A stretch of DNA of 63,923 nucleotides, filler included, from Reclinomonas americana ATCC 50394 (lineage: Eukaryota): NCBI GenBank assembly GCA_048213135.1. It is 8 parts of 8 records of this genome, joined end to end, with 100 filler letters (N's around TTAATTAATTAA, not from the genome) between each part and the next. Parts side by side here need not be neighbours in the genome. Positions count along the whole stretch, not along the records: positions 1 to 9,360 come from AFZH01017878.1; positions 9,461 to 22,512 come from AFZH01017879.1; positions 22,613 to 27,686 come from AFZH01017880.1; positions 27,787 to 52,031 come from AFZH01017882.1; positions 52,132 to 56,392 come from AFZH01017883.1; positions 56,493 to 59,086 come from AFZH01017884.1; 2 more parts are not named here. The stretch is one strand, 5' to 3'. Every line of letters begins with the position of its first letter. The stretch's first letter is position 1. The notes beneath the pieces are model-generated. The model made no database searches and had not been told where the DNA came from. It saw only the letters and a program-made list of their open reading frames with translations. Of this stretch, positions 316 through 56,600 are shown one piece after another. A program made the translations under genes and the position numbers.

Positions 316-3300
316 TCATTCGGCGTCAACAATCGAGGTCAAGATGAGCTGCTGAGAGCGCTGACCCGTCACTGTTACCACATCTGCAACGTCGACAGCA
401 AAGGCGTGTGGCGACTCATTCAACGTGGCCTCCATCGCTCGCAGTGCCGCATCCACAGCGCGCCACTGCATTGCAATGTCCGCAGTCGGCACGCTCGTCT
501 GCTTGATTCGCTTGCGGCTCCCCTTGGCCTTGGTCGATACGGCATCGTCGGCGATATCTTGACTGCCGCTGGCGTCGTTCAAAATACGGATGAGTGACAT
601 CAACAATAATAATGCACAGGGCACATGTAACAAAGCGAACCGCAACGCGGCTGTCACAGCCTGCTCGACCTGGTCTTTGATGGTGCTCACGAGGTTCGCC
701 GAGCCGGCCACCGACTCGAGGCAAGTGAGCGCAAGGGCACTCAGCGACGGTCGCGCATCCTCGTTCACTGTACACGCGCGTATGGTAAAGAAGAAGAAAC
801 GGCAGTGAGACATAACACGTCAATGAGTGTGAAGCGACGACGCTTGCGATAGTCACCATAGACGCCATCTACACGGGTATCTCACATCTCAGTAATTACG
901 AACAAAGGGCAAGGCAGGCAGCGCGTACATGCGACTTACCCTGCACTGTCCACGGCGGCAGCTGTCCCAGTTCGTCTTCCTGTGGCCAGTGGGGTGAGAG
1001 ATTGATCGTCACATTCCAGTGCAGCAGCACAGAGCGGACGCACGTGGCCCTCCAGCAGCACGTTCAGTGACGAGCGCCACAACGGTACCAGCACCTGCAC
1101 CTCCTCTCGCCGGTTGACATCCAGTAGCGTCAAGACGAGTCCACGAACCTCCCAGCCGGGCAGCATTGCATGCTCGGCAGTCGGAGCCGCCCCACTGCCC
1201 GAGGCGACGCCCTTGCCTTTGCCGTTCTTGGCGCGCTTGGTCGGCGGCTGTTGACTGCACGTATGCACGGTGTGCATGGGTGAGCACCGAGAGAAAATAA
1301 GTACCACACGCCAGTGACGGGATGCACCACACCTTGACGATTCCCCAGCGAGATCCTCCCCCTCGGAAAGAGAACGCAACAGGGCATTGCACAAGTCGCG
1401 AAGCTCGACAAAGGACGGTTCCGCGGCCGCGTTGTCGGCCGCGCATACGGAGAGAAGAAGCAAGTCGACGTTGCTGACCACGGCGTGTACACACATGGAG
1501 CACACTTCGCCGACATACAACTGCCGTGCCCGATTGGCCAGCTCACTGCACGATGGTCAGGCACTCGATGCGCAGGCAGATTACGCACAGTCATACTCAC
1601 GAGAACATGGACAACTGGTTCGTGCCGTGCACTTCGTGGAACTTATTCAACGACGTGATGCGGTGCAAACAGGAGGGCAGCTGATACTCGGCAGCCGTCA
1701 GCGCCAGCTGCTGAATGTTGTCTTGCTCTGCACGCGTTCTTCATCAGTGGCGCCACCCACCGACAGAAGCACCGCGCAGTGCTGCCGCTCACCCGACAAA
1801 GCCGCAGCAAGTGCCTGATCGGCAGGAATGTCACCAGCATCGCCCTCATCCTCCATCTGCGAGTCGCGTTCGCGCGTGAGACTTGCGCTCATCGCACATC
1901 TCTCTCTGTGCGAACGCACCTGGCTCTCGTGCATGATCTCGACACAGCGCGACACTGTGCTCCGCAGCAGCATGCCGGTGGCCAGCAAGTTGGCTGAGTC
2001 TTGCTGCCGCAGTTCTAACAAACAACCCGCCACGGCGGCAGCGCCCCAGTCCAACCGAACACCGGTGAGCGGTTCGACACGGCTGAGCAACGCCACTCGA
2101 TCGATGCGGTCCAGCACTGTGCACATCGACAGTAGACAATGGATAGAGAGTTGATGAAGTCGGTCTGACGAATGCTGACGGCAACGTGACGCACTTGCAG
2201 CTCTCCGTCGAATGTTATCGGTCTCGTGCCGACGCCACGTGCCAATGTCGTCCGTGTTCACCGAAATATCGCAGTGCGCCAGAGAGACGATGCGAGTCAG
2301 CGAAGAACCGCGGTAAAAGCACACCGGCGCGCGGCGCTCAAACGACTCATTCGGGAAATTGCGCACGACCAGATCGGTGAACAGGTACAGTTTGCCACAC
2401 TCCATCCTGTGCACGGTCAGTTACATTCATGAACCGTGTGCGCGAGATGGGAAAGCACAAACTAAACACAACTCTTCGAGGACGCGAGCACTCGACTGCG
2501 CAAACAGCTGCACAGCAACCACACTGGTGGAACTGTGATCCATCACCAAAGCCCATCGGTACACATCGGCCGTTGCGGAGAGCACACTAAAGCAATTGTG
2601 ATGATCGATTTTAGGCGACAGGCACTTGTGCATGCACACGAGAATACGCACATTGGCTCAGCATGCCCTGCAACGGCATGCACACGCTGCGTCCGCAGCG
2701 GCGACAGCCACAGAATGACACACGCAATGGTCTCTCGTGTGCCCGTCGGCAGTGTACGCAGTGATCGAAGCGGTGATATTGGCCCAATGGCATCCGACAT
2801 GTGCTGCACGGACGACGGACAACGAATGTCGAGTTCTAGCACAACACTCAGCAACAGCAACGGACACGCAGCACGAGCGGATCGAGGGGATACCGTCCAC
2901 CACATGTAGTACGCCCGTCGGTGACTTGGCGTTGAGTGCCAGCTCGACGGCCGACTCGGGCATGTGCTCGACCACACTGTCGCGGATTACAAGAAATGAG
3001 GACACGGGGGGTGAATAAAAGAGAAGAGACACGATGCTGCACCTGGACAGATTGCGATTCTTAAGCCTCATGTTGGCCAGGTACACCAATCGCCCAACCT
3101 CCAGATCCGCAAGGTGCCGCAACGCATGCGTATTCCACAGCGTGGCGGCAATCGGCTTCGCAATCGTGTCGTCCTCTGCACTCCATCGATTGAGGGATAT
3201 CAGCGTCCGCTCACATCGCTCCTGATCGAGCACGGGCACGCAACTGATGTAGAATGTGCACGAAAACGGCTGCTTGTGTTCACGACCCGGCTTGGAGAAG

Positions 3301-4570
3301 TTGTTCAGAGGGGCGACACGAGTGATGCGGGCCACGACTCCGCGCAAATCACGTTCCTTGGGACTGTGCACACGCGCAACCAAATCAGTGTCAGTCGGGA
3401 TAGAAGCTGAAGGAGAACCTGCATCCGCTTCGTTTCGCAACTCTTGAATCGCCAGGTATTCGCGGAGCGACAGTGCTCGATCCACTAACGACTGCAGCTG
3501 CTCACGACCCACGCTGCACAGCACACACGCACACACGGTACGAAGTGAGGATGATGGTGAGTGACAGGAGGAATCATGTGGTCGTACGAAACATCACTCG
3601 GGCGCCCTCCATCGGTGCTCCGGATGGTTCTGTGTGCCTTCACAGTCAGGGACTGTACGCTGAACGGGCAAGCAGACAGGCATAGGCACGCACGAAGCCC
3701 ACGTCGAATGGCATCAGCGGCGATCTCCAACGATCGGTGCGACCACACGGGAACATACTCGGCAATGAACGATGCGCACGGTGCGCCCTGTGCAACACAG
3801 CGCCGAATGTCAACACCTGTCACCCAGTCACGCACACAAAGGCCCGTGCTCCCACCGATGCAATGGTGTTTCTGTACGAGAGCTGTGCGTGCAGTGGATA
3901 CGCCTGCGCCGGCAACGACAGCACCTCCACATCCAACAGCACTGGCACCGACGGACCCGTCAGATCGCGCTCGCGATAGCGCGTGATGAACCGCTTGACC
4001 TGCGACCGCAGTCAGCGACAGCGGGACGACGCAGACGCAGCGTTCGTGCACGCAACTCGCACAGTGCACCCGGTGAACAGCTGGCCGCTGTGCACGAGCG
4101 GACGCAGCGATGGATCCAGCACAAAGGGCATCTGCGCAGACTCGTCACGCACAGCCACACACACACGTACTCGCGCATCGCACGCCACTTGCAGCACTCT
4201 CACCTTTTGCGAGCTGGAATCCTGCAGAAGAATGTCGAACACACTGAGGTTGGTGCCAGTCGGCGCCGATCCGACCACTTGCTGGAACATCTCATCCGCC
4301 ATGTCTAACGGCGACGATGACAACGGCGAGTTAGCGATGTGTGCGCATGATTGTGTGTGCCTGTGGATGCGTGTGTGCTAAATAGAATGGGAGACGCAAC
4401 AGCGACCCATGGCCACCACACGAAAGGTGCCGTAGCCGCGCTCGGCACTGCCACCTCCTCCATCCAGCAGCAGCGCAGAGAGCAGCGATGGGCCGTCTGT
4501 GAGAGTCACACAGTCAGCAACACAGATGCGAGAAGAGCGCCAGGGGAGCGGGGGAAGTGCACTCACCCAT
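316..4570 (-). CDS. RADX: RADX (CXorf57)-like RPA-related multi-OB-fold ssDNA-binding protein, multi-exon
   Basis: Start ATG G|gtgagt at 4570. Spliced segments FRVVAMGRYMADE, FDILLQD..FVLDPSLRPLVHSGQLFTG, ARITRVAPLNNFSKPG..PFSCTFYI..ATLWNTHALRHLADLEVGRLVYLANMRLK..VELALN and YRWALVMDHSSTSVVAVQLFAQS match, in order, RADX OB motifs as recalled ([59 protein letters not shown]). Stop at 316. Confidence 0.8.
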
Positions 4571-7589: not shown

Positions 7590-10500
7590 TTACACTTGCG
7601 ACTCCAACAACAATGGTCTGCGACAGAGAGAATGTCAGTCGACGACGAATGTCAAAACACGACTCAAGCCTTCGTACGTACCGTCGCTTAACATCGTCCC
7701 CAAGCAGACTCATCTCCAGCATCTGCAGCGTACGTGGACGACCCATGCGCTGCTTGTAGATGCGGTCATCGGCATCCGCTCTGGCGTCGCGCTCGAGTTC
7801 GTCGATGCGTCGCTGCTCTTCCAACTGATGCGCTCGTAGAGCGCGAAGTTGCGGATTTCGCAAGAGTGTGACGGCCAGGAACCAGCGATTGAGAATGCGC
7901 TGTCGCCTCGCCATCTCGCGCCGGCGACTGGCAATCTGCTCCTCGAGACGACGAATGACACTGGCGTCTCGTCGATTGATGTTTAGCGAGCCACAGTGCT
8001 CCTTGATGCTGTGGGGGAGAAAGAGAGTCACGCCATGTATATCGACATGAAGGAACACGCAAACGCAACTGTTCGGGGCTGTTGTCCTTGCGCCACCGTC
8101 GATCCTCTTTGATGGAGGTGAATAGCATGTCGCAGAACTGATTCACAATCGGATTGTTGTGGAGATAGGCGGTGCGCACCATGGCCAGCCTGTACACACA
8201 AGCGAGATGAGCATGACGGTGTGTGATGAGCACGGGTGCACGCACGCACCAGCCAGCATGGCCAAAGTCGATATGCAGCACGTGTGCCGGCGTCGGAATG
8301 TCCACTGCCACAAAATGGCGTGAGTGGCAACGATCGATGACTGCACGCACGGACTGACAAGGTGAACAGGCGAAACTTCGCATGTAGCCGAGGGCGCCCG
8401 AGACGAAGTTGAAGAGCAGGCGAAGCGACGAGTACAGCAAGCCGGGCACGTACGACACCAGACTGTACACGGTGTCGAAAAACAGGAAGAACCGGTGGTG
8501 CACAATGTCACCCGACTTGACCAAGAAGCCAAATCCGACGCTGCGACGAGCAATCATGTGAGCTGCGGGTTGCAAAGAAAACTAACTCTCATTTGTTAGA
8601 CGCAACACGTAGTAGAGCACGCGTAGTGCGATCTCTGCAAGTTACGCACCAAGTCAGTCACCAACAGCGACACAACAAAACACTGGTGCGGCAACTCACC
8701 AATGCTCAGCAGCGCCACCAACAACACTCGAAGACGATCCAGAATAAAGTCGCGAGATGGTCTCCAAATGAACAAGAAGAAGAAACCACCAACAACCGCC
8801 GTCAACAGCACAAAGGCCACGGCGATTCCCCTGCAGAGAGCAGCCGTCAGTAGCGATCGTACGACCCTCTGTCGCCGTTCCTCCTCACCATGTTTGCAGC
8901 GCAATGTACATGCTGGCAGGAACGGGAGTCGCATGTCGCACCTCTGGCATTGGCTTACCCTGGCGCAGTTGCATGATCTGTATCGATATCGAACGTGATT
9001 GTGAGTCGCTCGGTGGGGAGAAGGAATGCGGCGACAACGGACGAAACTGAATGGCGGAACGCCTTGAACATGATATACAGGGACAGCGTGATGCCAAAGA
9101 CAGCACAGCCGGCGCCAATGTACACCGATTGCGACAACGACTCGCTCCACGCATAGTAGCCCTGGTTGGAGGCAGCAATGAATTGCATGGCTGCCGATTT
9201 GGCGAGATGCGTGCTGTTGGTCGATTGTTGCAGCTAAGTGACGAAAAAGAGAGAGCATGAGCGTCGTAGTCACAGCAACATCCAGAAGAGCGCAATCAGT
9301 CGCACCGACGAGATTTGCGGGGTTGTCAGCGTGTGCGTCGAGAGGAAGGTGGGCACATCTNNNNNNNNNNNNNNNNNNNNNNNNNNNNNNNNNNNNNNNN
9401 NNNNTTAATTAATTAANNNNNNNNNNNNNNNNNNNNNNNNNNNNNNNNNNNNNNNNNNNNGCGACGCCTCTTGGCAGTTGGCAACTGGTAATCAAATGTC
9501 AGCATGGAGAAAAAAAGCGACTTGCAGTCTACGAGGAGACCTTGTGGAACCATGCTGGCTGCCCGGCGCGAGCGTCCTGCTCAACCTCGTTGGTCAGCAG
9601 CCGCCTTACCAACAGGCGCTGTTCGTCGGATCGCACCCTTGTGAACTGTGTGTGATCACGTAGACATCTGTCAGAAAAGATGGAAAGGCAGAAGGGATAT
9701 GCGAAGGGAGAGAGCACGCAACATCCAGCTGCTTTGCGCGCGCTTTGTTCACAAACAAAAAGTACACTTGCTGAAGAACGGCGCCCAGTGTCAAGAGCGC
9801 CACGAAGCTGTGTTGTGCCAGAGACAGAGCGAGTAAGCATGACTAATCAGTTGCGTGAAGAAGCAAAGCAACGAGGAGAAGAACTACGACGCAACGTGAC
9901 GAGAACGAAAAATGAGCCTGTGGTGAGTGAACAACAGGCAAAGTTAGTGAGGAGCATTAACTGTGACCGACCGCACAATGGCAACTCTGTTCGCACCCTG
10001 ATACTTGTCGGGCGACGAGTATAACTGAGGAAAAAATCACGCTTTGATGAACACGCAAGCACAAGTTTGTCGGCACATCACGGTCGCCTTACCAAGTGAT
10101 CGTAGTTTGCCCAGCGTGCGAGCAGCCACAGGAGGTTGGCCAGGAAGCCGAGGCAGCCAAGCAGACCTGCACGAATATACAACTATCGGCACTGCGTTCT
10201 ACGCACACAGGCGATGAAACGCACTCTCACCAATGAAAATGAAGGCAGGGAGAATCCACGCTGTACAACAGTATTATCAAGACTAGTCGAGGTCAAAGTG
10301 ACTACGACTGCTGAGAATCCACTCACCAGTGACCGACATGAAGATCGGGAGACTTGCCAGCGCCACAATGTACAGGCCATTCTGGCAAGCAGAGCAACTT
10401 TAGCCAAATACACCTCTACAACAGGAGAAAAGCACAATTTGGCGGCACAGACCTCCCACGTGTCCAGCGATTCGGTATTAATTTGCGACGGGTTGTCGAA

Positions 10501-13500: not shown

Positions 13501-16500
13501 ATGGAAAAGGGGACTCTCCTGGAACAGCACGGAGTTGTTGATCCAGTGCCTGTGCGGAAAGCCATGAGGGAGGGAGGGAGGGAGAAAGGAAGGGAGAGAG
13601 AGAGGAAGGGAGAGAGACAAGAAGAGAGATGCATGATGCAAGCAGGCAATCACCTGGTATCGAATCGGCTCGGGCCACGTCTGATTGTAGGCCACAACCG
13701 CTGGTGGGGCATTCAACGGTACCAATATGTTGCATTGTGTGAATGTGGTGTTGTTGATGATTTGGAAGGGAGCACTGAAGCGCTGGACGCCGTCCACAGA
13801 GAAGATGACTTGATACTGTGTGAGGTGTGTGAATAAAAACACACATACAATCTCAGTGATGCGGGGGAGTGAGAGAAAAACACACCACGCCAGTCAAGGC
13901 TGCTGCGATTTGCACATTAACTGGAAGCTCACCCGTCATACTGCAACACTAGCACAGTCAGTAATTATCCGACACACACACAAAAAGCCAGTGAGTACGA
14001 GTGATACCTGGATCGACTTTCCCACGGTCGCTGTGCTCGCAACACAGCCGACGAGTTGGGGAACGGGGAGGAGTCAACGCGTTGCAACGCTAAGAAAACA
14101 CTCTTGCCACCAACACCTGCGAGTAGTTGAATGATTCGTCGGCGACTAGCGTACACATGCACACACAGCGAGAAGGAGAGGAAGAGAGAGAAATGCTGAC
14201 CCTGGGCATTGCTGGTCACTCGGAGAATGGAGAGAAAAGTCGCATCGCTCATGGTCGTCGTGTTGAACGCGACCACACTCGGTGCGTCCACCAGCACTTG
14301 CACATCGGTAATCGATGTGGTGACGTTGATCAGTTGCGACGGCAGCGTGCCCTTGCCCTCGCAAAAGAACGACAGCCGGAATGTACCAGCATCGCCGTAG
14401 GCAGTGAAAGCGAGACCAGAGAACGTGGCCCTGCAGCGCGGTGAGGACGACTTGCGATGTGGACGCCACGACAACACGCCCGCACACATACCGTCCATTG
14501 TGGTCGGTGACTGCGGTGAAGTTCCGCAAACCCTTGTCACTGCTGTAATAGGGCACGGGTAACAACTGAAAGTAGTCGATGCTGCACGGCAGAGAAGAAG
14601 CAGTTGAGTTAAACAAAAAAGAAACGAGAAGGAGGAGGACAGCTTGTGTACCCCTCTGCGAGTGGAAACGAGATGCGAGTGAGACACGGGTCATGAAGGC
14701 GCGCGAGAGGATGTGCACGCAACGAGAAGACGATATCAGAGCAAACACTTTCTTGCCAGGCATGGGATTCTGCTGCGCATCCTGCACCAGAACAATGGGC
14801 TGAACAGCCAGTGGCACACCCTCCACTGCAGACGGCGACGGCTGTTGGAACAGAATGACCGAGCCCACTGCAGCAAGACACAGCGATGAGTGCACTGGGG
14901 CCATACACATAACGCACAGCAAAGATGCTCAGGTCCACCAGTGGTAGTCATCGCCATCGGCTCCGAGTTGTTGATCAGCCAGTCGGAATCCGCGTTCTCC
15001 GACACTGCCAAATCAGTCACATAAGAGAGGAATGGAAAAGGAAGCGAGCCACGGGTGCGGCCGTACCGATGCGCAAGTAGTTGATGGGACTCGAGCTGGC
15101 GGCGAGTGTGACATTGTTGAATGTGACCATGCCGTGCGCGTCCGATGGTCCGCCGCGCGAGTTGATTATGTCAGCTGTGCTGCACGTGAGTCTCCCTTCT
15201 CCTTTACATGTCACGGCGATGGATTACGCAACTGACTACAACTCCAGGGATGCCCATTTGCTGCGACGGCAGCAACACAACATGGGTGTCAAGACGACAG
15301 CGCCGAAGCAAGTCAACTCTTTTTTTTTGCATCACGCTACCTGCGGTTTGGCAGAGGCCACGACAAAGGCGTATGCGCCGGCCACCGGGTTGCCGCTGGC
15401 ATCGAGCAGCTGCACCACTGGCTGGTTGGTGAACGGCGTGCCAAAAGGAATGAAATTGGCTCCGGGACCGCCGCTCGTCAGCACGATTTGTTGCACTGCG
15501 GTGGGAGTTTGTGAGCGGGGACTTGCAAGATGACAACATCAGCATTCCTCACCTGTGGGCGTCACCAGCACTGGACTCGGCGGTAGCTCTACCGAGCCGC
15601 CGCCAAAGTTGATGCCATACGTCGTGCCAATCGCAGCATTGATGTACCAGCCACACCCGCTGGACTCGAAGCGCAGGTCCACAAATCCCGCGTCTCCATT
15701 CTGCACGCAACGCAATCGCAATCTATATGACAGCGCAGGTGGGGCGGTGTGTGAGAAGTCATGAATGTGCGCTCACCAAACCCGTGACTGCGGTGGTGTT
15801 GCCGACCAGGCGAGGGATCGCACACTCAATGTAATTGTAGGCCTCGAATCTGCATCGTGGGTGCGCGTTGGTGCCATGATCTCTCTCCCGACGAGACACA
15901 CGCACGCGCATACGGGGAAGGGTACGCAACGAGTACCGCTCGAGTGCGTCATTCTGACCATACACCTGTGCATACGCTGTCACTGTCGTGCCGGCGACGC
16001 GATTCGTGTCCGTGCCGACGGCCAGAACCTGTGCGCCGCTCAAGTGAGACAGAGAGAATTACGCGCGCAGTGGGTGTGCTTGACGCACCGTCGGCTGCTG
16101 CTGCAGGTTCACATTGTAGTACGCCGTCCGCGAGGGAGTCTGCATCGTGTACACCACCGCCACCTTGGCGGCGGCCAGCGGTTGCCGATTGGGATCCACG
16201 TACACCGAGTGCAGGGCAATGAACAACAGGGAGGTGATGACGGTGGAGAAGATGAGCACGGAGGCTGCTCGGGTTCGAGCGCGGTCGTACACAGCGTCGA
16301 GAAAGACCTATTTTCGCATCATCATCATTTCGTCATCATCATCAATGCATGCGTGATATCGGAGAACACACACAAACACACACGCACCGGCAAGTGAATG
16401 CCCGAGTACGTGCCCGTGCGCGCATCGTACCGTGCTCCGTAGCACTTCCACGAACGGCGGCGCGGTCGGATGCAGCGGTCAATGGCGGCGGAGAGGCCGG

Positions 16501-23124: not shown

Positions 23125-23319
23125 GTTAAAATGAACAAGTCGATGTCGATGTCGACCGTCGACTCGACAGATCGACGCACGCACACACACACCGACTGAT
23201 CGCGCAGGCAGAGAGAGGTGAGACAGCACACTCACGCGTCCACGATGCACACGCGCACGTCTGCACGACATGTCGACTCACACACACACACCCGCACTTT
23301 CTCTTTCTCTCGCAGACGG

Positions 23320-36873: not shown

Positions 36874-38392
36874 ATGGGATGTGCGGCTTCCACGCGGAAC
36901 ACGGTGGCGACCGCGGCCGTGCCACCCACCAACAAGCACGTGACACGCATCACAGCTGCCTCCTCACGCACCACCACCATCACCTCCTCCACCTCCTCGT
37001 CGGCCTCCACCATTAGAACAGGGCACACGGGAGCCTCGTCGCCCTCCGCCTCGGCCTCAGCACGCACCACAACGGCCTTTCCCACAGCACTACCACTCAA
37101 CGGCGCACCACACTCACACGAACAACAGCAGCAACAACAACAGCAACAACAACAACACAACGGCGACACTCATCAACCGCTCAATCATCGTGCCTCTGCC
37201 TATCAGCAGCCTCGTCGCGGTGACTACTCTCACACTGCTGTGCATTCGAGAAAGAGACAACAAGAACACGTCTGACACACGCACGCGCGCGCGCGCACAC
37301 AGATGAAGAGGACGAGGGTGATGAGTTTATGCCACAGACGACACTGGCCAACACTGTGGCCTCGCTGATTGTGGGCGACAGTGCGGTGCCGACGACGGTG
37401 GCCACGGTGGCGATTGAGGCGCCACTGACAACGAATCGCACAGTGTTGCAGCAGCCGGCGACGGGCGAGATGAGGGAGAGACCGGCGGATCCCACAGAGG
37501 CGCACGCGTGGTTGAACAGGCACGTTGTGTGTGTGAGAGAGAGAGGGAAGGGGCGAGGGAGGCGCAAGCTGACTGTGTGTGCTTGTGTGTGTGTGTGTGT
37601 GAGCAGCACCAAGAATCCAATGGCGCTTCGATTGGGTTGCGTTGCTTTGTGGTTTCTCTCTCTTCGCGTTGTCCTTGCCGCTCATGCGCTCCCCCCCCTT
37701 TGCTGTGTAGCGCAATGGACACGCACAGCGTACTTTAGCAACGACGCGCTCTCGTTTGAGTATCCAGCAGATGTTGCGCGCGGCGATTTGTGGTGTTATT
37801 CTTCTTCTTCTCCATTGGTGTTGACGCACTTTTTTGCAGTGGGAGTGTGGGATGGACGCGGGTGGAGACACGGTGCTGGTGCAGGTTGCGTTTGGGCCGA
37901 GTTTGCGCGTGAGCCCCGACATATTCCCTGCGGAGAAGGCGCTCAGCACCGACGAGTATGCCGATGTTCGTGTGTTTTTCCCATTCCGACGTGCCCCCTC
38001 CAAATGCGTCTGACGACTTTCTCTCCCCCAATAACAGCTGGTGAACTCGCAAGTGCATTCGGCGATACCACACGAGACCGTGCTCTCCGATGAACTCGTG
38101 GAGATTGGCGATGAGGTGTGGAGGAAAGTTATCAGACAATACTGGCAACGAAACTCGGTGGACGGCACGACGGTGCGTGGCGGGCGTGCTCTCTCCTCTC
38201 CATTCCACTCCTCTGCTCACCACCAGCACGTAGATCCCACTCGAAGTGCGTCAATGCACATATTTCCGCACCGAGATCATCGACGACTACTGTGTGGCGT
38301 ACGCCCACACGTATACATGCGGGCCGCAGCTCTGGGAGCTGTACTCGCCAATCTTTGAAAAGATCCTCAGAAGCGTAGTGTACAGAAAGTAA
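36874..38392 (+). CDS. N-acylated protein with C-terminal PsbP/Mog1-like domain (paralog 1)
   Basis: MGCAAS start, long low-complexity linker, then NSTKNPMALRLAQW..FSNDALSFEYPADW and CVAYAHTYTCGPQLWELYSPIFEKILRSV; TAA at 38390-38392. Confidence 0.65.
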
Positions 38393-40599: not shown

Positions 40600-42142
40600 A
40601 TGGTGCGTCGCCGTGCATGCGTGTTCTCATCTCTGTGTGTGTATGTGTCATGACGACGGGCGTTCTCCTTTTCACGCGCGCGTGTCTTTGTGTGTTGTCT
40701 TGCCCGCGTGCTTCATGTTCGTTCATGTCGCACGCGCGCGCGCGTCGGGAATCGCACATCAGAGTGACTGGATAATGAGAGAGCTTACTTGTGTGTGTGT
40801 GTGTGTTTCGTAGTCTGGCGCTGCAAAGAAGCCATCATCGTCGTCATCATCAGGCGCGGCTGCGGCCTCGGCTGCACCCGCTGGCAAGTCGTCGGTGAGT
40901 CACACACTCGCACAGAATGACACGTGGCAGCCGTCTGTCCGCGCACATGCGCGGGCATGTCTCTTCTCCTCCTTCTACAGTTTCAATGTGTGTCGTGGGG
41001 GGGAAGAGCGAGGGGGGGCGGTGGCAGAGAGCTGGTGTGAAATGTGCACTCTTTTTTCTTGTTGTTCGCGCCATGCCCGTGCCCCCGTGCGCTCACCTTC
41101 GCTGCACACCAACAGTCGGGCAGCAAGTCGGATCGCGTGAGACGGAAGGATGCGCACGACTACTCGAAGGTGCCGCTGGAGGATCGCTTGACTGATTTGA
41201 GTTGCGCTTGTCATGCACACATACAGGTGCACACACGCACAGCATGTGTGGCTCATTCTCTCTTTTGCGGCGCAGTGTACGTGTTGTGGTACCTGGTGAT
41301 GTTCGCCGTCGTCATGCCGGTCGCTCTCATGTCGGTGACGGCGCACTACAAGAGCGTGCCGCTGGCCAACGTTGGCGAGCACCTGCCGTTCCTCGCCCCG
41401 TGCGTGATCGAGGCGGTGGCCAAGTTTGGCGAGATCGCCGACCCCGTGATGGTGTGCCAACCGAGCCCGTTCTGCTGCCTCATCATCATTGTCATCATCT
41501 AATAACGAATTTGCTGTGTGGTAGAAATTCAACCCGGGCTGGCTGGTGGCCATGCAGGGCTTCAACCTGTTGGTGTGCGGCCCCCTGTACCTGCTGACCG
41601 CATTCGGTTTCCTCTTTGGCTGGAACTGGATCCGCGTGCCGGCCACCATCAACTCGGTGTTTACCCTGTACCAGATTGCGATGCACGGATCGGAGACGTT
41701 CTTTGGTGGCGTCGCCCCGATCGAGCCCGTCACCTACCTGGTGGCCTACGCACCGGCCGTGCTCATCTCCATGGCCACGTACAAGCGCCTGTCGATGGTT
41801 GAGCCCTTCTAGTTGCGTCTGCACGCAGGCCTCCCATCACGCCGATCCTCCTCCTTACCCCCCTCCATCTGCAGCGCCAACGAGCGTGGTGTGTTCAAGG
41901 CCGTGGCGCTGAACGCCGCCTTTGTGGTGGTGATGGCCGAGGCTCTGGCGGTGGTGGCCTTCATGGCCTTCCGCTTTGCCGTGTTGCACCTCGGCTACGG
42001 CGAGGTCTGGCAGCACCCGCACCTGGTCAAGGCCCGCGACTTTGTGCTCCACGACGCGCGCGGAACGGTGACCGTGGAGGAGCTCCCCCTGACGCACAAC
42101 GCGCCGGCGGGTGGTGCCTCGATGGTGGCCGATGAGAACTAA
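40600..42142 (+). CDS. EXPERA-domain (TMEM97/EBP-like) membrane protein
   Basis: Motif ADPVMKFNPGWLVAMQGFNLLVCGPLYLLTAFGFLFGWNWIRVPA..YLVAYAPAVLI. First exon is ATG only; the apparent TAG at 41810 is a TA|gttgcg donor. Confidence 0.75.
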
Positions 42143-42336: not shown

Positions 42337-43905
42337 TCAACGCAGGTACTTGTTGATGATGTTGTCGATGAACCACTGCTCGGTGAAGCGCAGGTGCTGT
42401 GTCGAGTGAAGAGAGATAAGAGTGAGCTCTCTTACGGGGTACGGGAGTGGGAAGCAGTACGCAACATCGCCGACCACGGACAAAAAGTCAATCTTTCCGG
42501 CCTGATCCAACACCTTCAGACCGAGCCAGTCCTGCTGGTACACGTCGGTCTGCTGCAGCGGAATCGTCTGCTTGTCTTGTCCAGGGGCGTAGAATCCGAA
42601 CCACTCCGAGTCGCGTGGTTGCACCATGCTGTACACATGGTCAGCGATTCGCACACGAGGCAGCAGAAAGCACCAAGCGACACACGCAACGAGTCCTCCG
42701 TGAACTTGACCAGCACGAACCTGGTCATGGCAGGAGCTCAACGCGTGTGAGAGAAGGAGAGAAAAGACGGCAGCGAGTGCATCGCAACTTGTTCAGCGAC
42801 TTGAGGTTGACGGCATACGTGGAGTTCTTCTGTGCCTTCTGGTTGTTGATGTCGGCAATGAACTGCGACTTGGCAACGTACTCCTGCGACAGGGGGATGA
42901 GCAAACGCGGTAGCCGACGCTGCTGCTGCTGTCTGTCTGTGTGCCCTCGCACCTGCTGCTTGAACGGATCGTTCCAGTACTGCGCCTGCACCAGTCGGTT
43001 CTGCACAAACTCGACATACGCACCCACATCGAGCAGCTCACGCATCCACTCGCACAGCGTGTGATTCGTGGCCTCGCAGCGCGGCAGTCCGAACACGCCT
43101 GCCGCCCCCCAAAAAACCCGAATGAGCGACAACGAACGCACAGTGAGGAACACACACAAGCCGACGTCACCAAAGTGCTGGCCACCGACGGAGATCAAGT
43201 TGCGCACTGGCGGATCGTTGCAACGCTGCACGTACGCACGGAGGAACTGACCGCCCTGGGAGAAACTACCAAACAGACGGAGAGGATGATGAGCGAAAAA
43301 AACGCTGATTCCTTATCTCCTCGACGCAACCCAATGGCATTGAAGCCGCCCTGCAGCTGCGGATCGGCCTTGAGTGCGGCGCACACCATGGCGATCTGCT
43401 CGTTGACCGGCTTGAAGAAGCTGTCGATCACACGAGTCATCATGAAAAGAAAGAGAGAAGACGATTTCTGAAAAAAGAGGACGCAACCCATCGTATTGAT
43501 CCTGCTCATCTGAGCTGCCAATGCGCACCGAGTGCACATACGATCCCGTCTGCTTGGTGATGAGCTTGCCCAGGTCGGCCATTCCCTGCTCCACACAGTG
43601 AGTCACACCAACACATATCACAGACAGTGAGCGACACAAGTACCGGTGAGTTCGACCAGTCGCCCATGCCATGCCACAGCACCACCGGCAGTGAGCCGCC
43701 ACCCAGTGCCTCCTCCAAGTCTATGAGAGCGCGCGCGTGTATGTGAGTGAGAGAGAGAAAAGGAGGAGTCAATATATGTGAATGACAACACGCGCTCACC
43801 CAGAGTCGTCACATCGTCAAGTGACACCGCGTGACTGGTGCCAAGCAGCATGGCCACCGAAAGCACAGTCAAGCACGCGGCGAGGAGCAGCGCGCACTTG
43901 CTCAT
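42337..43905 (-). CDS. PPT1: Palmitoyl-protein thioesterase 1
   Basis: Signal peptide; motifs PVVLWHGMGD, FNAIGFSQGGQFLR, NLISVGGQH.GVFGLPRC, VQNRLVQAQYWNDP, FIADINN, VQPRDSEWFGFY, DWLGLKVLD, GDHLRF. Confidence 0.96.
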
Positions 43906-47751: not shown

Positions 47752-50700
47752 ATGAGCTCGGAGAAGAGCACTGCAGGCACTGTCGTCGCTGAGTCCGACA
47801 CTCCCACAGCTGTGGCGCCGCCACCACCTCCCCCACCCGTCAGTGGCAGCAGCACGCCAGCACCAGCGCCTGCGCCGCCCGTGTACTTTCCCCACATCAG
47901 TGGCGACGATCTGGTTCCCGTGATCGATGGCAATCCGCAGGAGAATCGCGCCGGCGACAGCGAACCGGCTGGTGGTGAGTGTCGTCTCGTGTGGCGATCG
48001 GGTGTGCGATCGCATGTTTGTGCGGTGCGCTCCTCTTCCAATGCGACAATCGCTTCGCGAACGCAGCACTGGAATTTGCAGAGGACGAGCCGAGTCCGGT
48101 GGAAATCGAGCTGCAACCTGTCGACCTCGCCGCTCGCCGTGCCTCTCGCTCTCACCATGTGATGCTCCCACCAGCGTCACCGCAGCGCATGACCGCTGTC
48201 CAGGTGCCGCTGTTGGACACGGGAATCGCTTTGCACGTCCCATCGGTAATGGAACCGATGACTGCGGTGATTGTGCCTGGAACCACCGCCGTGGTCGACG
48301 ACACGACGCGGCACCCGTTGCCGCAGCAACAGAGAACGCACCACCATCATCACCACCACCACCACCATGCGAACGGAGCAGCCGCCTTGAAACAGGAGCA
48401 GCAGTTGAAGCAGCCGCTAGTGCATCCACGTACCAGTCCACCTCAACAGGATCGTCTGCGATCGGTGGTCGGTCTCACCGTGGGGGCGGGCCCCGATGTG
48501 GACGCCGATCGACAGGCCCTGATCTCTGCAGGCTTCGGGTCGCCGGGCCAGTATTCGGCGTCGTCGCTGGATCCACTGACCGGCGACGATCGCGAAGACG
48601 GCGAACAGTTGCGGAGTGGTATCCTGGAGGTGCCGGGAGCCATCGATTTGCGGCGCGCCGACATGCGATCGGTGTGGGCCTTCTTGGTCGGCGTTCTCTG
48701 CACGCAGGTACTGTGTGTGCACATGAGTGAGCGTGCTTGTGTGAGTCGCATTGACACGGATGTATGCAATTGCAGGTATGGAACAACTCGTTGCAAATTG
48801 TGCAGCCACTGTTGGTGCTGTGGGTCACGAATGATGTTGCGGCAGTGCATTTGTATGCGCCTGTTGATATTCAATCGACTCACTGATGCCACGCATGCAG
48901 CCGTCGATGGTGGCCTTTATCTTGGTGCGCACGACCAACCAGTTTTGACTGTATTCCTTGATTTGTATTTTCATCAGTCTGCATCCTCTGCAGATGGGCT
49001 ATGGCGTGTGCAGTGCGCTCGGCAACACGCTTGGCGGCCTGTGCTACCCATTCTTCTCGCCCAAGAAGCTGCTCGTCACGTTTTGCGTTGTGCGGTTCGT
49101 GCGCGACTGTGAGTCCACGCTCCTTCAAACTCGAAGCTCATTCATGTTTCCGCAGATCACTCTCACAGTTTGCCACATGCATCGTGTACTTGTGGGCGTC
49201 GAGTCACGGCTGGTACATCCTGGTGTTGTACATGGTGGACTCGCTGGCGATCGGTGTGCTGGACACTGTTCGCACGGCGTTTCCGCGATCGGCTGTCGGA
49301 CCAGAGGAGGCCGCGCTGAACAAACTGAACGCCGACTTTCAGCTGTCGTTCGATGCCGGCACCACCATTGGTTGGTGGCCTCTGTTGTGAATTGAGTGCA
49401 TGGCTGCTGCTACTCCGACGTCCTCCCTCACACGAAACACAGGTCCAATCATCACCGGTGTTGTCATGACGCTGACCACGGATTTGCGCACTGTTGTCTT
49501 CCTGTCACCCTTCGGGTTCCTGTCGTGTGCCGCCATCTTCCTGTACGTGTGAATGCATAGACACACTTCTCTGCCTGTTGTTGCTCACCGCCGGCCGAAC
49601 AGGTGGGTTCCACGACTGAAGAGCGACGCCGAGGTCGCGCGCCAGCGACTGATCGCCAAGGGCAAGAGTTTGACCACGTTGCAGATTCTCAGCAAGGCGT
49701 CGCCGTGGGCATCGCTCAAGTTCGTCTTTGGCAACGTGAGACTCGTACTACCATTCGTTGGCTTCCTCATGCTGCAAGGTATCTCGTCCGCTCACATCAA
49801 CATGTTGTGCTGTTCGAATTTGCTAACTCTCTTCTGCACAGTGTACCGGCTGAAGAACACATATGCAGCACTGTATGCCACTCAAGTGCTGCACAACGCG
49901 ACGCTGACTGCCTGGATGGTAAGACGACATTCGATCCTCGTTGCTGTCAATGGTGGCACTCACTCCTCTTTCTCGGTGACACAAGATGGCCGGTTTCGGT
50001 ATTGGTGGAACGATTGGCTCTCTCCTGTTCCGCTTCATGGACAAGCACAAAAAGTTGTGTGTGTATCACTGCGCGCGTAATCGTGCGGTGAGTGGCTGAC
50101 GAGATGCGTGTACGCAGGATCAATCACGTGCGCAGCATGCTGTCTGCCGGCATCAGCCTGGCCATCTTCTCGTTCATCTGGCTGCCGGATGTGATTGACA
50201 AGAACTCCTCGGTGTGGTTCCGCTTCTCCTTCGACGAGCTAGCGATCATCATCATGGTCGTCGGCAACGTGTTTGGCCGACTGTCGATGAACGTGCTGCT
50301 GCAGAAGGAGCTGCCGTGTTGCGTGATTCTCTGCATGCTCTGTGTTTCTCATGGTCGTCCGTCACTCACTCTGCATCATCGCCTGCGAAGCCTCACGCAA
50401 CGCTGGTGTCATGGCCCTGCGTGGCTTCTTCGTGAAGCTCACTGCTGCACTGATGCGTGGACTGCTCGGCCTGGCATTCGTGGTGACTGCCAACAATGGA
50501 CTGCACGCGTTCCTCGTGTTCTCCGCGTTTACCTTCCTCCTGGCCGCCGCACAGGTACGCAACCGTATTGTTACTGCTGCTACAAGGAAGTGACCTGTCG
50601 CTGACTGCACTCGCAGATTGTTTGCAGTCTTGCGTACCGCTCCAATCGAGCAGCCACAACCTCGGCTGCCGACGCCACGGCATCCATGGTACTGTTGCAA

Positions 50701-51107: not shown

Positions 51108-52375
51108 TCACGCCCTGCGTGGAATGTAATCACCGGCGGCCCAACGAGTCAGATCCGCCATCTCCTTGGTGTTGAACTGCCGTGCGTCGGCAAAGTGACG
51201 CGCCGTCTCCGCGATGCGAAGACCCGCCGCTGCGATTGATCGTGGCGGTGAATCGACAGGTGAGAGAATATCATCAATCAAAAACACGCAGTCGACTCAC
51301 CAGCGCCAAACTTGAAACCGTGACCCGAGCAGCAGCTGACGAGCAGAGTGTTGGCGTGCACTGGCTCCACCACAAACTTTTCGTCGATTGTCGTGGAGTA
51401 GAAGCACGTCATGCCGCGCTCAACCTTGTACTGATTGGCGTCGGTCAGCGCGTACTTGCAAGTCTGCATCATCGTCACACAACAGAAGTGAGTCGATATC
51501 AGTCGGCAAGTGCCAGTCGTGAGCGCCGGCCAACCTCAAAAAGCTTCTCAGCCTCCTCTGCAGACGAGGTGCGGTCGGAGTCGGGGTGGCCCTGCTGCGT
51601 GAAGGTGTGGAATCCCATCTTCAGTCCCGTTCCGGGAATGGGTGGCACCACGTACAGGCCACTCTCCGTGCCAATGTCGAGCAGCATGGGAGCCTGTACA
51701 TGCCACAGTGAACAACACAAACACGCACGCAGAGGGAAAGTGAGACATGATCGCGGCGCACCTTGGACCACGCCTCGCGGAGGTGTGGAGGAGGCTGGAC
51801 GTACACCAGCACCTGCCGTGAGGCAGTGATTCGCTTCTTGGTGCTCGGCAACAGGTCGCCGAGCCAGGCACCAGCACACACAAAGGTGAGATCGGACTTG
51901 AACGAGGCACCGCCGGCGGTCTTGATGAGACCCGATGGCGACATGTCGACAACGCGGGCATTCGGCACAAACGTGACATTCGGCTGCATCGCACGCATAG
52001 TGAGTGGCAGCACGATCTCCAGTCTGGAGAGNNNNNNNNNNNNNNNNNNNNNNNNNNNNNNNNNNNNNNNNNNNNTTAATTAATTAANNNNNNNNNNNNN
52101 NNNNNNNNNNNNNNNNNNNNNNNNNNNNNNNCGCACACCACACACACGCATGCATGGAAACACACGGCACGCAACGGATAGCGAATGAGGCGGTGCTGGT
52201 CCACGGAAGAACCCAGTGGGTTTGGCAGCGTCGGCGACGCCTCCAGCACCGTCACTCGCGTCGAGGCCGCCAGTGCACCGGCACGCACGAGTCGAGTCAG
52301 ACCCCATGCGATGCTGAGACCATACAGACCGGCACCCACAACGTGGATGTTGAGACCTGCGGCGCGGCTTGTCAT
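51108..52375 (-). CDS. FAD-dependent oxidoreductase, sarcosine oxidase/PIPOX (DAO) family (spans gap)
   Basis: Motifs IHVVGAGLYGLSIAW, PNPLGSSVDQHRLIRYP; after the gap FVCAGAWL, LYVVPPIPGTGLKMG, TCFYS, CSGHGFKFG. Confidence 0.9.
52032..52131. other. Assembly gap spacer
   Basis: N44-TTAATTAATTAA-N44, inside the FAD oxidase gene. Confidence 0.98.
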
Positions 52376-53599: not shown

Positions 53600-53611
53600 C
53601 TGTGCGTTCAT

Positions 53612-56600
53612 TCACGTGGTGCGCACGTCGACGGAGCTCATGTCGTCCGTCAACTCGTCGCCTGACACGGCAGACGGTGTGCACTTGCCGGCGATCGCCT
53701 CCGTATCGCCGTCTTCGTCGTCGCCCTCCTCGTCCTCGTAGTCATCGTCCGTCTCGCTATCGCTGACATTGTCGAGCGATGCTGCGGTGCTGGAGGCGGT
53801 GCCCTCGTCGCTGCTGCTACTCGTCCCTACTGGCTCATCCAGCGCACCGCGTAGTGCCTCCAACCAAGACGAACACTGCCACACAACGCTCGTTCGTGAG
53901 TGAACACACTCGGCAAAACGCAACACACGCACGGTACCTGAGCAGGTGTGGTGGTCGTCAGCTGGATGGATCGCTTGCCTTGAATGTGTACCACAAATGA
54001 ATCCGCTGTGCGTCGATCGACACGAGATGGGTTAGTTTTTCCTTTCGCTGCGTCGACAATCAATGGTGCATCGCTCTCACCTGTGCCCATGACTGACTCC
54101 ACACGTGGTGGCAAGTAACCGTTGCCGGCTCCACGCAGGGGGATCATGCGTACGCGGTGGCGGCCGAGCAGACGTGATGTGCGGATCACCAGCGAGTCAT
54201 TGAAGAGCACCACCAGTGCCTTCTTGCCCTTGCCGGGCGCCGAACCAGGACGCGACTTGCGTAGTTCGCCCTCCAGCAGCACTCGACGCCACACCTTGCG
54301 GTCGGAAAGACCGAGTTCTGTTTGCAGCTCGCGGACTCGTTGAATGTTCTCGTACTCGCTGTGTGCGCGCACGTGTCAGTGAGGGAACAAAATCAACGCA
54401 TGAGCGGTGGAATACGTGATACCGTCGTTTGGTGTTGCAGTACTCGGCTGCATCACATACACATATACGAGAGTGGAGATCAGCTACCAGTCACCACACG
54501 GCCGCAACGCACACACACACACATACACACCGATTTCCTTCATGCCGCCGAGTGCCTGCTCCACGACACCGTATGCCGGTTCGTCGGCATCCATGTGCTT
54601 CAGATAATCCTGACCATTCGACGTTGTCAATCTCACGTGCGGCGGTAAGACAAGGAGGCTGGTGTATGCAGCGCACCTGCAACAACAGATTGTAGCGTGG
54701 CAATCGTTGAATCGGCTTGACAAGTTGACCCTGCACGCCGAGAAACAAACATTATTCTGACAGTGGTGCATGTACAGAGTGCCCACTGTGCGCCGCACCT
54801 CAAGATTGACACCAAACAGACGCGGATCTTGCTCGGCTCGCCGCAGGAATGCGTCCAATGAACGCTGGCTCTTGCGCTTGCTCGTCAACAGTTCCATCAC
54901 CGCCTCGTACCTATCATCATCACGAAAATCAGTGCTCCCCATTCACCAGTGCGCGTGGAAGCCATTGTGCGCAACTTGTTGATGTATGCCGTGTACAGTC
55001 TGTGCAGACAAATAGTGATTAGACGAGGTCAGCAGGCGATGCCGGCGTCAGGGCGACACCGCAACTTGAATGCTTGCGAGCTCTCGAGGAATAATCGCGA
55101 CGGATCCAGCGACCGCAAACACTCATACCACTGCACGGCAGACATGTTGGCACCCTCTTGCTTCACGAGAGCAAGTGTGCGCTCGACCATGCGCGTGAGG
55201 TCCTCCAAGAAGTTGGTGTTGAGTCGGCGGATAACCTCCAAGTCGTCGAACACCTGCGAGAGCACAGCCGGCGGCAGCAGCTTTGATTCGCGAAGCGGCT
55301 CCTCAAAGATCTGCAATGTACGCGTCACACCACCCAGCGTTCGCTACGAAAAAGAAACTGCACGGAAGAGAACCTCGTGAATCAAGTTGAGCGACTCGAC
55401 ATACTTGCGCTCCGTATCCAGCAACTCTTGCACCACCTGCAACGACGCTGAGTCGGAAGTAACACACACGGGACTGGCCGTTCACGCCTCATAACGCAAC
55501 TCTAGCTCGGTGCTTCATCGGTGGCAATCGCTTCGCCAACGCTTCGTCCATGGCGGAAGTTGAATTCACCTTTTCGGCGGTTCGCAGCACGGCCGCAATG
55601 TCACCACCACGGAATGCCGGCGCAGAGACGACGCGCCGGTGAGAAGCGGCACCCGCAGATTCGTCGGCAATGGCGGCCCCGAGTGAATTGGCGGCGACCG
55701 CAGCAGCGACGGCGGCTGCTCCCTCGGGCGGCGGAACGATCTCGCCTGCGCTCTGGGGGAGCACACCATTCATGAACACGACGAGCGAAGAGAAGCCATT
55801 CATTCATTGCTCACAGACCTCGCGGACAAGCCAATCCGCAATGTGCTCCCACACGGGTGCCGAGGCGGGGTGCGTCGTAAGGCCCATGTGCGACGGGGCA
55901 CTGGGAGGGACAAGAATGTGAAACTGCAAATCCATGGTCATCGAAAACACACTGCCGACGCCAGCTTACCGCTCTGCCACGTGCTTCAAGTTCTCCGGCA
56001 AGTGTTCGTGGCCCGGTTCCAGCACCACCAGCGACACTTGGTCACGTCGCTCCTGCAGCAGCGGGTCGAGGAAGTGCAAACCGTAGCGGGTACTGATCAT
56101 GTCGTCGGGCTCGGTGAAGACAAACAGGCACGGGCAGGTGATGTGTCGCAGGTTTGCGCGATAGCACTCCTCGCCAGCACCTGCGTCACACATTACATCA
56201 AAATAATGGATGGTGGTACTGCACTTGGCGCGCTTCGTGCTCACCGTGTGCGCTGCCCCATCGATTGCGTTTCCAAAAGTCGGAAAACGCGCTGGCCAAC
56301 TCCGACTCCTCGTCAACCGATCCCAGACTGCGCAGCGACAAGACGAGGTGAGGGGGCGAGACCACTGTGAACCTTCTCCATGAGCAAACACCNNNNNNNN
56401 NNNNNNNNNNNNNNNNNNNNNNNNNNNNNNNNNNNNTTAATTAATTAANNNNNNNNNNNNNNNNNNNNNNNNNNNNNNNNNNNNNNNNNNNNAAGTGAGT
56501 GTGAGAGTGTAGGGGGGAGAGAGGAAAGTGAGGAAAGAATGGGAGCGAGAGACGCAGAATGTGACGCACCACTGCTATGATCAAGGCCAGCACGGCAGAG

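Follow-up and report, generated by a model that had tools for sequence, protein, structure and literature searches.

GTTGCGT as a putative class of 5' splice sites in a 64-kb stretch of Reclinomonas americana DNA

How does a spliceosome find the start of an intron whose first bases break the usual rules? The question is raised by a stretch of DNA from Reclinomonas americana ATCC 50394 (assembly GCA_048213135.1), referred to here as the window and comprising the whole of the 63,923 bases analysed, with a G+C content of 53–59% per 4 kb. Apart from the initial GU, no intron-start positions are better conserved across eukaryotes than the purine at +3 and the G at +5, which are thought to be read by the U1 and U6 small nuclear RNAs (snRNAs). 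The commonest donor predicted in the window, GTTGCG(T), breaks both of these rules and is found together with ordinary donors in the same genes. An original prediction made from the sequence alone had placed such donors at 33 coordinates, and GTTGCG is present on the strand it had given at 33/33 of them.

Within this one 64-kb window, comparison with homologous proteins confirms the predicted GTTGCG(T) donors as a real class, which is also the commonest and carries its own signature at the last exon base (position -1), while it may be read either in a non-canonical register that is in routine use or by a U1 that has co-evolved with it or exists as a second copy. The introns concerned are classed as U2-type despite the U at +3 and C at +5 that define them, and this departure from a purine at +3 and G at +5 is itself the anomaly.

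Junctions were located with profile hidden Markov models built from homologues of three genes (60 for RIOK2, 40 for MCMBP and 40 for PPT1), the closest of which, in very large protein collections, show only 38–50% identity to the proteins encoded here. Exon matches were found in the three coding-strand frames and every frame-compatible excision near the match ends was scored for each junction, first as GT/GC…AG pairs and then as any pair of cut points (arbitrary excisions). Among the GT/GC-AG excisions, the one starting at GTTGCG scored best at nine RIOK2, PPT1 and MCMBP junctions, a tenth junction, in RFC3, being obtained from Pfam coordinates. At 8/9 of these junctions, with 42465 as the exception, only 0–10 of about 900–1700 arbitrary excisions scored higher. 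The introns of the four genes are given below, with the rank among excisions, the number of arbitrary excisions that scored higher ("beaten by") and, where relevant, the result of the gene-model parse described further on.

33416..33494, minus strand: RIOK2 intron, GTTGCGTG, 79 nucleotides (nt); top of 4; beaten by 0/1701; 112.5 bits
32308..32371, minus strand: RIOK2 intron, GTTGCGTT, 64 nt; top of 20; beaten by 2/1316
32915..32986, minus strand: RIOK2 in-frame intron, GTTGCGTT, 72 nt; in the parse; tied by homology
43421..43487, minus strand: PPT1 intron, GTTGCGTC, 67 nt; top of 4; beaten by 10/1057
43266..43330, minus strand: PPT1 intron, GTTGCGTC, 65 nt; top of 8; beaten by 0/1061; 116.9 bits
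42721..42788, minus strand: PPT1 intron, GTTGCGAT, 68 nt; top of 11; beaten by 0/886; missed by the parse
42629..42690, minus strand: PPT1 intron, not among the sites originally listed, GTTGCGTG, 62 nt; top of 11; beaten by 2/1185
42397..42465, minus strand: PPT1 intron, GTTGCGTA, 69 nt; top of 22; beaten by 106/1294
24522..24589, plus strand: MCMBP intron, GTTGCGCG, 68 nt; top of 49; beaten by 5/1063
25023..25091, plus strand: MCMBP in-frame intron, GTTGCGTA, 69 nt; top of 17; beaten by 10/1478
24703..24709, plus strand: MCMBP donor GTTGCGT with uncertain acceptor; 52.2 bits against 52.6 for a GC donor three bases on; the parse took 24730
23551..23612, plus strand: MCMBP intron, GTTGCGAT, 62 nt; in the parse; 57.3 bits versus 58.8 for the highest-scoring excision, the N-terminus being poorly conserved
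23921..23986, plus strand: MCMBP intron, GTTGCGAC, 66 nt; parse only
26150..26211, minus strand: RFC3 intron, GTTGCGTT, 62 nt; Pfam RFC_C

For MCMBP, the motif had originally been assigned to five of eight introns; it is present at all five on the plus strand, with 24522 and 25023 ranked first by homology, 24703 and 23551 tied, and 23921 found in the parse only. The tied RIOK2 intron at 32986 accounts for 24 residues that are inserted with respect to the profile, and it scored 112.4 bits, against 112.8 and 112.7 for alternative donors. At RFC3 26211, the upstream exon (48/48 residues) matches RFC_C profile positions 21–70 and the next exon continues from position 71, making the junction exact.

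The same genes and one further gene supply junctions with other donors. The ordinary donors validated by homology all differ from one another (GTAAGC, GTGTGT, GTACTT, GTGACG and GTGCGA), and one other donor with U at +3 was found in EMC3.

33589..33692, minus strand: RIOK2 intron with ordinary donor GTAAGC; top excision; beaten by 0/1788
33252..33301, minus strand: RIOK2 intron with ordinary donor GTGTGT; top excision; beaten by 0/674
43099..43170, minus strand: PPT1 intron with ordinary donor GTGACG; top GT/GC-AG excision; beaten by 1/650
42884..42952, minus strand: PPT1 intron with ordinary donor GTGCGA; top GT/GC-AG excision; beaten by 41/1409
43589..43643, minus strand: PPT1 intron with donor GTACTT; top GT/GC-AG excision; beaten by 18/633
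59363..59427, plus strand: EMC3 intron with another U+3 donor, GTTCGATG, 65 nt; Pfam EMC3_TMCO1

At EMC3 59363, profile positions 87–116 are matched upstream, and the match to positions 119–168 begins with the very first residue of the downstream exon, with a split codon (phase 1) and no gap. The GTCGAT donors predicted by the parse at 30412 and 63234 would correspond to the EMC3 GTTCGATG motif minus its extra U. A separate observation in RIOK2 concerns a 345-nt in-frame, stop-free stretch at 32437-32781 on the minus strand, lying between profile positions 236 and 237 and unmatched by homologues, which represents either an insertion specific to the lineage within this kinase or a set of unresolved introns, no GT/GC-AG excision being clearly ahead.

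The motif is also more frequent than composition would lead one to expect: the observed count of GTTGCG was reached in 0/100 dinucleotide shuffles of the window. On both strands there are 100 copies of GTTGCG, against 70.68±7.88 in the shuffles (largest 88), and 51 copies of GTTGCGT, against 16.96±4.08 (largest 28); the excess of GTTGCGT, approximately 34, is near the number of sites finally called donors or candidates. In a model-free test, a YTVAY-like branch motif followed by YAG ending 45–110 nt downstream was found after 50/99 GTTGCG sites, compared with 2371/8629 other GTNNNN sites (p=1.4e-6), this module being found after 44% of GTGCGT sites and after 18–25% of composition-matched words.

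As to the fates of the 100 GTTGCG copies, 27 are donors in the parse, 2 are donors by homology only and 10 are candidates from the original prediction only; the others fall in predicted exons (18 sense, 15 antisense), in introns (9 sense, 1 antisense) or outside gene models (18). T at +7 is found at 31/39 donor or candidate sites versus 20/61 of the remaining copies (p=5e-6). We rejected the idea that exons avoid GTTGCG, in view of the 18 sense versus 15 antisense exonic copies.

The size of the class was estimated by a gene-model parse. Codon bias in the window is low, making intron detection from codon bias alone too weak (GTTGCG pass rates were just 2–3 times the average), and a freely self-trained parser, which ran away to 541 introns in 3 "genes", was discarded; for both of these reasons the models were kept fixed. 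The coding model was a three-periodic Markov model trained on Pfam-supported frames, and the intron-body, length and acceptor models came from 15 homology-validated introns with the first 8 bases excluded, the donor being uniform over GT sites. With this donor-blind parse, GTTGCG was the top donor hexamer at each of three intron penalties (20/91, 23/161 and 24/219). A further parse, using a donor model learned from the strict parse, gave 150 introns in 39 gene fragments, 27 of them with GTTGCG, followed by GTGTGT (20), GTGCGT (14) and GTACGT, GTGAGC, GTGTCG, GTGTGC and GTTTTT (4 each). GTTGCG is therefore the single commonest donor in the window by predicted introns, with a share of about 18% (27/150), or at most about 24% if all candidates are real.

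This parse recovered 21/33 of the originally listed sites and added six more (14723, 15930, 20017, 22011, 42690 and 60030). Among the 12 sites it missed, 42788 and 24703 are supported by homology and the other 10 are plausible candidates. The parse introns outside the four genes above are as follows:

4000..4056, minus strand: intron, GTTGCGTG, 57 nt; parse only
8009..8069, minus strand: intron in a STRA6-like gene, GTTGCGTT, 61 nt; in the parse
8541..8606, minus strand: intron in the STRA6-like gene, GTTGCGTC, 66 nt; parse only
14582..14723, minus strand: predicted intron, GTTGCGTG, 142 nt, an unusual length; parse only
15883..15930, minus strand: predicted intron, GTTGCGTA, 48 nt, with a weak GAG acceptor; parse only
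19972..20017, minus strand: predicted intron in an aminotransferase gene, GTTGCGTC, 46 nt; parse only; PDB and Pfam alignments stop short of the junction
22011..22083, plus strand: predicted intron in an ankyrin-repeat gene, GTTGCGTG, 73 nt; parse only; Pfam and PDB alignments stop short of the junction
37636..37710, plus strand: intron, GTTGCGTT, 75 nt; parse only
37773..37839, plus strand: intron, GTTGCGCG, 67 nt; parse only
41201..41275, plus strand: intron, GTTGCGCT, 75 nt; parse only
41812..41874, plus strand: intron, GTTGCGTC, 63 nt; parse only
50318..50390, plus strand: intron, GTTGCGTG, 73 nt, with an AAG acceptor; parse only
52024..52175, minus strand: donor leading into a gap, GTTGCGTG; motif present; the intron spans the gap 52032-52131 and cannot be judged
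55437..55500, minus strand: intron, GTTGCGTT, 64 nt; parse only
60030..60108, plus strand: predicted EMC3 intron, not originally listed, GTTGCGTC, 79 nt; parse only

For the intron at 8069, the flanking exons match RBP_receptor profile positions 522–552 and 562–605, in order but inexactly. The ten candidates lying outside the parse are these:

28171..28239, plus strand: candidate in-frame intron in a CFAP73-like gene, GTTGCGTC, 69 nt; originally listed, outside the parse
31344..31350, plus strand: candidate donor GTTGCGT, with a branch motif and AG downstream; the parse used 31358
33956..33962, plus strand: candidate donor GTTGCGT, with AG downstream; outside gene models
34314..34320, plus strand: candidate donor GTTGCGT, motif present; outside gene models
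36017..36023, plus strand: candidate donor GTTGCGT, motif present; unused by the parse
55059..55065, minus strand: candidate donor GTTGCGG, motif present; unused by the parse
9716..9722, minus strand: candidate donor GTTGCGT in the STRA6-like gene near a gap, motif present; outside gene models
4394..4400, minus strand: candidate donor GTTGCGT, motif present; unused by the parse
3238..3244, minus strand: candidate donor GTTGCGT, motif present; unused by the parse
640..646, minus strand: candidate donor GTTGCGG, motif present; outside gene models

At 28171, the alignment to the PDB chain 9e5c_5e, which is axonemal and of the DUF4200 type, breaks at query residue 128 (codon 28170-28172) and resumes at residue 169, the chain numbering passing from 139 to 141, with weak E-values.

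In their general anatomy, the two donor classes are much alike. GTTGCG introns measure 46–79 nt, with one of 142 nt, and the ordinary class is similar; a YTVAY branch motif is found in 23/26 GTTGCG versus 46/56 ordinary introns, lying a median of 21 versus 20 nt before the 3' splice site, and C stands at -3 of the acceptor in 21/26 versus 50/56. The companion signals originally described thus hold, namely GTGCGT, GTACGT and GTGAGY donors alongside GTTGCG, YTVAY at a median of 20–21 nt from the 3' end and mostly CAG acceptors. Both classes are found within the same genes, PPT1 containing five GTTGCG and three ordinary introns.

The donors themselves are related in a simple way. Ordinary donors (n=56) read GUG(C/U)GU, with G in 50 and A in 6 at +3, T in 27, C in 23 and A in 6 at +4, and T in 41 at +6, and GUUGCGU contains the same UGCGU core with the GU placed one base further upstream. 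Parse donors per occurrence of GTNGCGT number 22/51 for T, 1/6 for A, 1/25 for G and 0/17 for C, and the extra base is therefore specifically U. Rarer predicted donors likewise read as ordinary variants with an extra U (GTT+GAGT, GTT+ACGC and GTT+GTGT). GTTGCGT makes up 22/27 of the GTTGCG parse donors, and U is found at +7 in 30/38 of the GUUGCGU class. The original description of GTTGCG(T) as the local GTGCG(T) plus one U is supported by this U-only insertion, the mirrored variants, the shared 3' signals and genes, and the T at +7.

The exon side of the junction differs between the classes. The last exon base of the GUUGCGU class (n=38) is A in 16, T in 12, C in 7 and G in 3, compared with G in 25, T in 21, C in 10 and A in 0 for ordinary donors with a purine at +3 and G at +5 (n=56), with Fisher tests on G and on A giving p=9e-5 and p=4.8e-8, respectively. 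In the validated subset, G at -1 is found in 5/5 ordinary versus 2/10 top-ranked GTTGCG donors. Phase-0 introns of the GUUGCGU class have A or T at -1 in 8/9 cases, while third codon positions are 29% A+T, and codon position is therefore no explanation for the bias. At -3 and -2, the preferences for a pyrimidine and a purine, respectively, are alike in both classes. This dependence of the last exon base on donor class is a new feature, absent from the original prediction. As a further observation, the donors at 26211 and 32371 on the minus strand and 37636 on the plus strand read GTTGCGTTGC, a tandem GTTGC repeat, and 32986 on the minus strand reads GTTGCGTTGT, which may be due to chance.

The explanation that we favour, at about even confidence when all of its parts are taken jointly, is that the GTTGCG(T) sites serve as true 5' splice sites, in itself a well-supported claim, for short (about 57–79 nt) U2-type GT-AG introns and are read one nucleotide out of register, forming a discrete second class W|GUUGCGU (W = A/U) mixed in the same genes with a degenerate K|GUG(Y)GU class (K = G/U). 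One major spliceosome would read both classes: the shared UGCGU core would always pair in the same manner, first with U1 and then with the U6 ACAGA box, and what would differ is the position of the GU that is cleaved, directly on the core for ordinary donors and a single nucleotide further upstream for GUUGCGU donors. A shifted or bulged register of one nucleotide would then be routine here rather than exceptional. In textbook pairing, U6 would also need to tolerate the extra base.

Duplex predictions were made with RNAduplex and short arm motifs, namely the textbook U1 arm and an ACGUAC arm of the Mastigamoeba balamuthi (M. balamuthi) type, neither of them necessarily the arm of this organism. 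The textbook arm reached -7.9 kcal/mol with the local ordinary consensus and -13.2 kcal/mol with CAG|GUAAGU. With the ACGUAC-type arm, A|GUUGCGU was predicted to pair at -6.4 kcal/mol in the +1-shifted register (G+1:C9, A-1:U10, with U+2 opposite C8), and, were the -1 base G, the bulged register would reach -10.0 kcal/mol. The restriction of the extra base to U and the frequent A at -1 agree with a shift.

A number of points weigh against this explanation. The textbook arm is predicted to pair with A|GUUGCGU at only -1.8 kcal/mol, through 4 pairs. G at -1 is avoided (3/38 versus 25/56 in ordinary donors) although it would stabilise the bulged duplex, and this avoidance fits neither a shift nor a bulge well, while the -3 and -2 preferences, which remain in the unshifted register, agree with a bulge and not with a pure +1 shift. 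The near invariance of the GTTGCG class over 7 nt, beside a degenerate ordinary class, would also fit a dedicated reader. The use of these sites as donors is itself deduced from protein homology and reading frames only. Ten of the 15 training introns were GTTGCG introns, and the donor-blind parse may therefore favour the class. The later parse missed 12/33 of the originally listed sites (646, 3244, 4400, 9722, 24703, 28171, 31344, 33956, 34314, 36017, 42788 and 55065). Finally, the 18 unused sense-strand copies in predicted exons mean that the GTTGCG hexamer alone is insufficient.

The alternative that survives best, possible but tentative, is a lineage-specific change in the snRNAs themselves, consisting either of a sole U1 with an arm complementary to GUUGCGU (…ACGCAAC…), with which GUGCGU would pair by bulging a U1 base, or of a second, variant U1 gene. 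Published systems provide precedents. In Entamoeba, 87.9–89.5% of introns start with GUUUGU, U is found at +7 in 77.7–83.1% and a U1 arm ACAAAC, which matches this donor, replaces ACUUAC (Roy and Bowser, bioRxiv 10.1101/2022.06.08.495308). M. balamuthi prefers GUGCGC donors and has the matching U1 arm ACGUAC (bioRxiv 10.1101/2022.06.08.495308). The 7-nt invariance of the GUUGCGU class, set against validated ordinary donors that are all different, the restriction of the extra base to U and the poor pairing of the textbook arm would all be expected of a changed arm, and the A or T at -1, with G avoided, would fit an arm that continues with U or A and not with C. Against this, Thecamonas trahens (T. 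trahens) and the Mamiellales prefer C or a pyrimidine at +4 with a standard U1 (bioRxiv 10.1101/2022.06.08.495308), and an odd consensus thus needs no changed U1. On this model too, U6 would need to make room for the additional base, and no snRNA gene was found in the whole window with Rfam at E up to 1, the only matches being sub-threshold look-alikes of microRNAs and small nucleolar RNAs.

A more specific version, which we consider rather unlikely, holds that two U1-type systems act in parallel, a dedicated arm …ACGCAAC(U/A)… pairing with W|GUUGCGU through 7–8 contiguous Watson-Crick pairs and a second arm reading K|GUGYGU. If this were true, GUUGCGU introns would count as a third type of spliceosomal intron, set apart solely by the 5' end, and the coupling of the -1 base to donor class, together with the strict U, would be the footprint of two arms.

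Recognition mainly without U1 pairing, through U6 and U5 interactions that are strong on the intron side and weak on the exon side or through a protein that binds GUUGCGU, would accord with the very weak pairing predicted for the standard arm, but we hold it to be improbable: the normal U6 register puts C+5 and G+6 opposite the ACAGA box, and U6 would need a one-base adjustment here too, while a Pfam scan of open frames gave no candidate protein among the genes of the window.

Very little can be said for GC-AG introns, in which GTT would be the last three exon bases and GCGT the first bases of the intron. An in-phase GC does lie three bases downstream, and at MCMBP 24703 it scored 52.6 against 52.2 bits, but the GC version was 4.4–7.6 bits lower in 8/9 junctions where listed and, at RFC3, RFC_C positions 70 and 71 are contiguous with no extra residue; the GC-AG reading was rejected on these excision scores and this contiguity. 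It is just as hard to believe that the introns are introners, recently spread transposon-like introns carrying their own donor, as an identical 7-nt start and similar lengths across many introns might suggest. All-against-all blastn of 26 GTTGCG intron bodies gave 0 pairs at E<0.01, their lengths equal those of all other introns and the share of 8-mers held in common was 0.21 within the class, 0.23 between classes and 0.35 among other introns; the bodies are mutually unrelated and there is therefore no introner family. Least credible is that GTTGCG is merely common by chance or coding bias in sequence of 58% G+C, the intron calls being artefacts: 33/100 copies do fall within predicted exons when both strands are counted, and 18 outside gene models, but no shuffle reached the observed counts, homology places the junctions and the tests of +7 T and of the downstream module give p of about 1e-6.

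A U12-type intron is defined by the donor RTATCCTT and the branch sequence TCCTTAAC near the 3' splice site. The U12 type was rejected here, the donor being GTTGCGT and the branch motifs CTCAC, CTCAT, TTGAC and CTGAC as in the ordinary class. What the GUUGCGU class does share with U12-type introns is that a minority with a conserved donor stands beside a degenerate major class, but its donor is not RTATCCTT and its branch and acceptor signals match those of the ordinary class.

Returning to the favoured reading of a routine shift or bulge, registers of this type have reportedly been described at human 5' splice sites by Roca and Krainer in 2009 and by Roca and colleagues in 2012. As in the sites here, those human sites have one nucleotide too many after the GU and a shift of register or a bulge restores pairing, and RNAduplex predicts such registers here with the ACGUAC-type arm, albeit that of another organism. 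The human sites are a small and heterogeneous minority, whereas here one heptamer is the commonest donor and the avoidance of G at -1 would not be expected from a bulge. It is established that a minority of human sites are read in shifted or bulged U1 registers (Tan et al. 2016, PMC4856993).

The original statement that sites of the U+3 type are rare exceptions needs qualifying, given that in Entamoeba GUUUGU(U) is found in 88–90% of introns together with a co-evolved U1 arm. The GUUGCGU class resembles that system in having U at +3 as a rule, a strong U at +7, a uniform donor and short introns, but Entamoeba keeps G at +5 and uses one motif for 88–90% of a small intron set, while here C+5/G+6 is found in approximately one-fifth of a dense set, mixed with ordinary donors. 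The ordinary class, GUG(C/U)GU, is similar to the GUGCGY-type consensus of GC-rich protists, among which M. balamuthi combines a G+C content of 60.7% with 3.4 introns per gene and an average intron length of 137 bp (Žárský et al., PMC8136499). The covered parts of the reports on these protists do not mention a GUUGCG class, and introns are denser here and, at approximately 68 nt, shorter than the 137 bp of M. balamuthi. Two classes of 5' splice site, distinguished by their potential to pair with U5 or with U6 and having opposite strengths on the exon and intron sides, have also been reported (Parker et al., PMC11732430, PMC9803359); the combination of a strong intron-side motif with a weak exon-side G at -1 is like that found here, but those classes have no extra nucleotide and keep the purine at +3 and G at +5, unlike the GUUGCGU class. 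A literal motif search of the literature did not find GTTGCG or GUUGCG as a splice motif among the matches listed, a search that a depiction by logo only would escape. The GUUGCGU class belongs with atypical donor consensus sequences or non-canonical registers as known phenomena.

If RNA data confirm the class, it would constitute a natural system in which a one-nucleotide change of register or a second U1 arm is used for approximately one-fifth of introns. This raises the questions of what determines the cleavage site if U1 and U6 pair out of register, of how donors evolve together with snRNAs, as has been proposed for Entamoeba, and of why the last exon base switches from G to A or U. In practical terms, a large fraction of the exon ends of this genome will be wrongly placed by any gene finder whose training used GTRNGT.

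Some minor observations concern the introns predicted by the parse. (TG)n and (CA)n tracts are common within introns, for example at 33416-33440 (minus strand), 44257-44351 (plus strand) and 39411-39502 (minus strand). Among the 20 predicted GTGTGT donors, 33301 alone is validated and the others may be parser artefacts of (TG)n repeats. A predicted 44-nt intron at 23272-23315 on the plus strand (GTCGAC…CTCGCAG), which ends four bases upstream of the start codon of MCMBP (23320), may be an intron of the 5' untranslated region or a parser artefact.

The window is interrupted by seven 100-base gaps, each consisting of 44 N, TTAATTAATTAA and 44 N and forming a spacer that has stops in every frame. 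The intron of the donor at 52175, at least, is interrupted by a gap, and one gap takes out part of a DAO-like gene.

9361-9460, 22513-22612, 27687-27786, 52032-52131, 56393-56492, 59087-59186 and 61681-61780: gaps

Between these gaps, eukaryotic genes are dense on both strands, as judged by Pfam matches on 275 open frames, each of at least 110 codons. Pfam identified a RhoGEF, a STRA6-like receptor, an aminotransferase, ankyrin repeats, MCMBP and RFC3, and also RIOK2, PPT1, a RING protein, EMC3, an FkbM-type methyltransferase and a CFAP73-like protein. A SNORD56-like match at 2096-2172 on the plus strand, in the region of a RADX-like gene, scored 25 bits (E 0.87) against a gathering score of 36 and is probably due to chance. 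The long open frame with a DUF4200 match at 27789-29237 on the plus strand encodes the CFAP73-like ciliary protein, whose best PDB matches are 8glv_AV and 9e5c_5e, and the organism is therefore probably flagellated.

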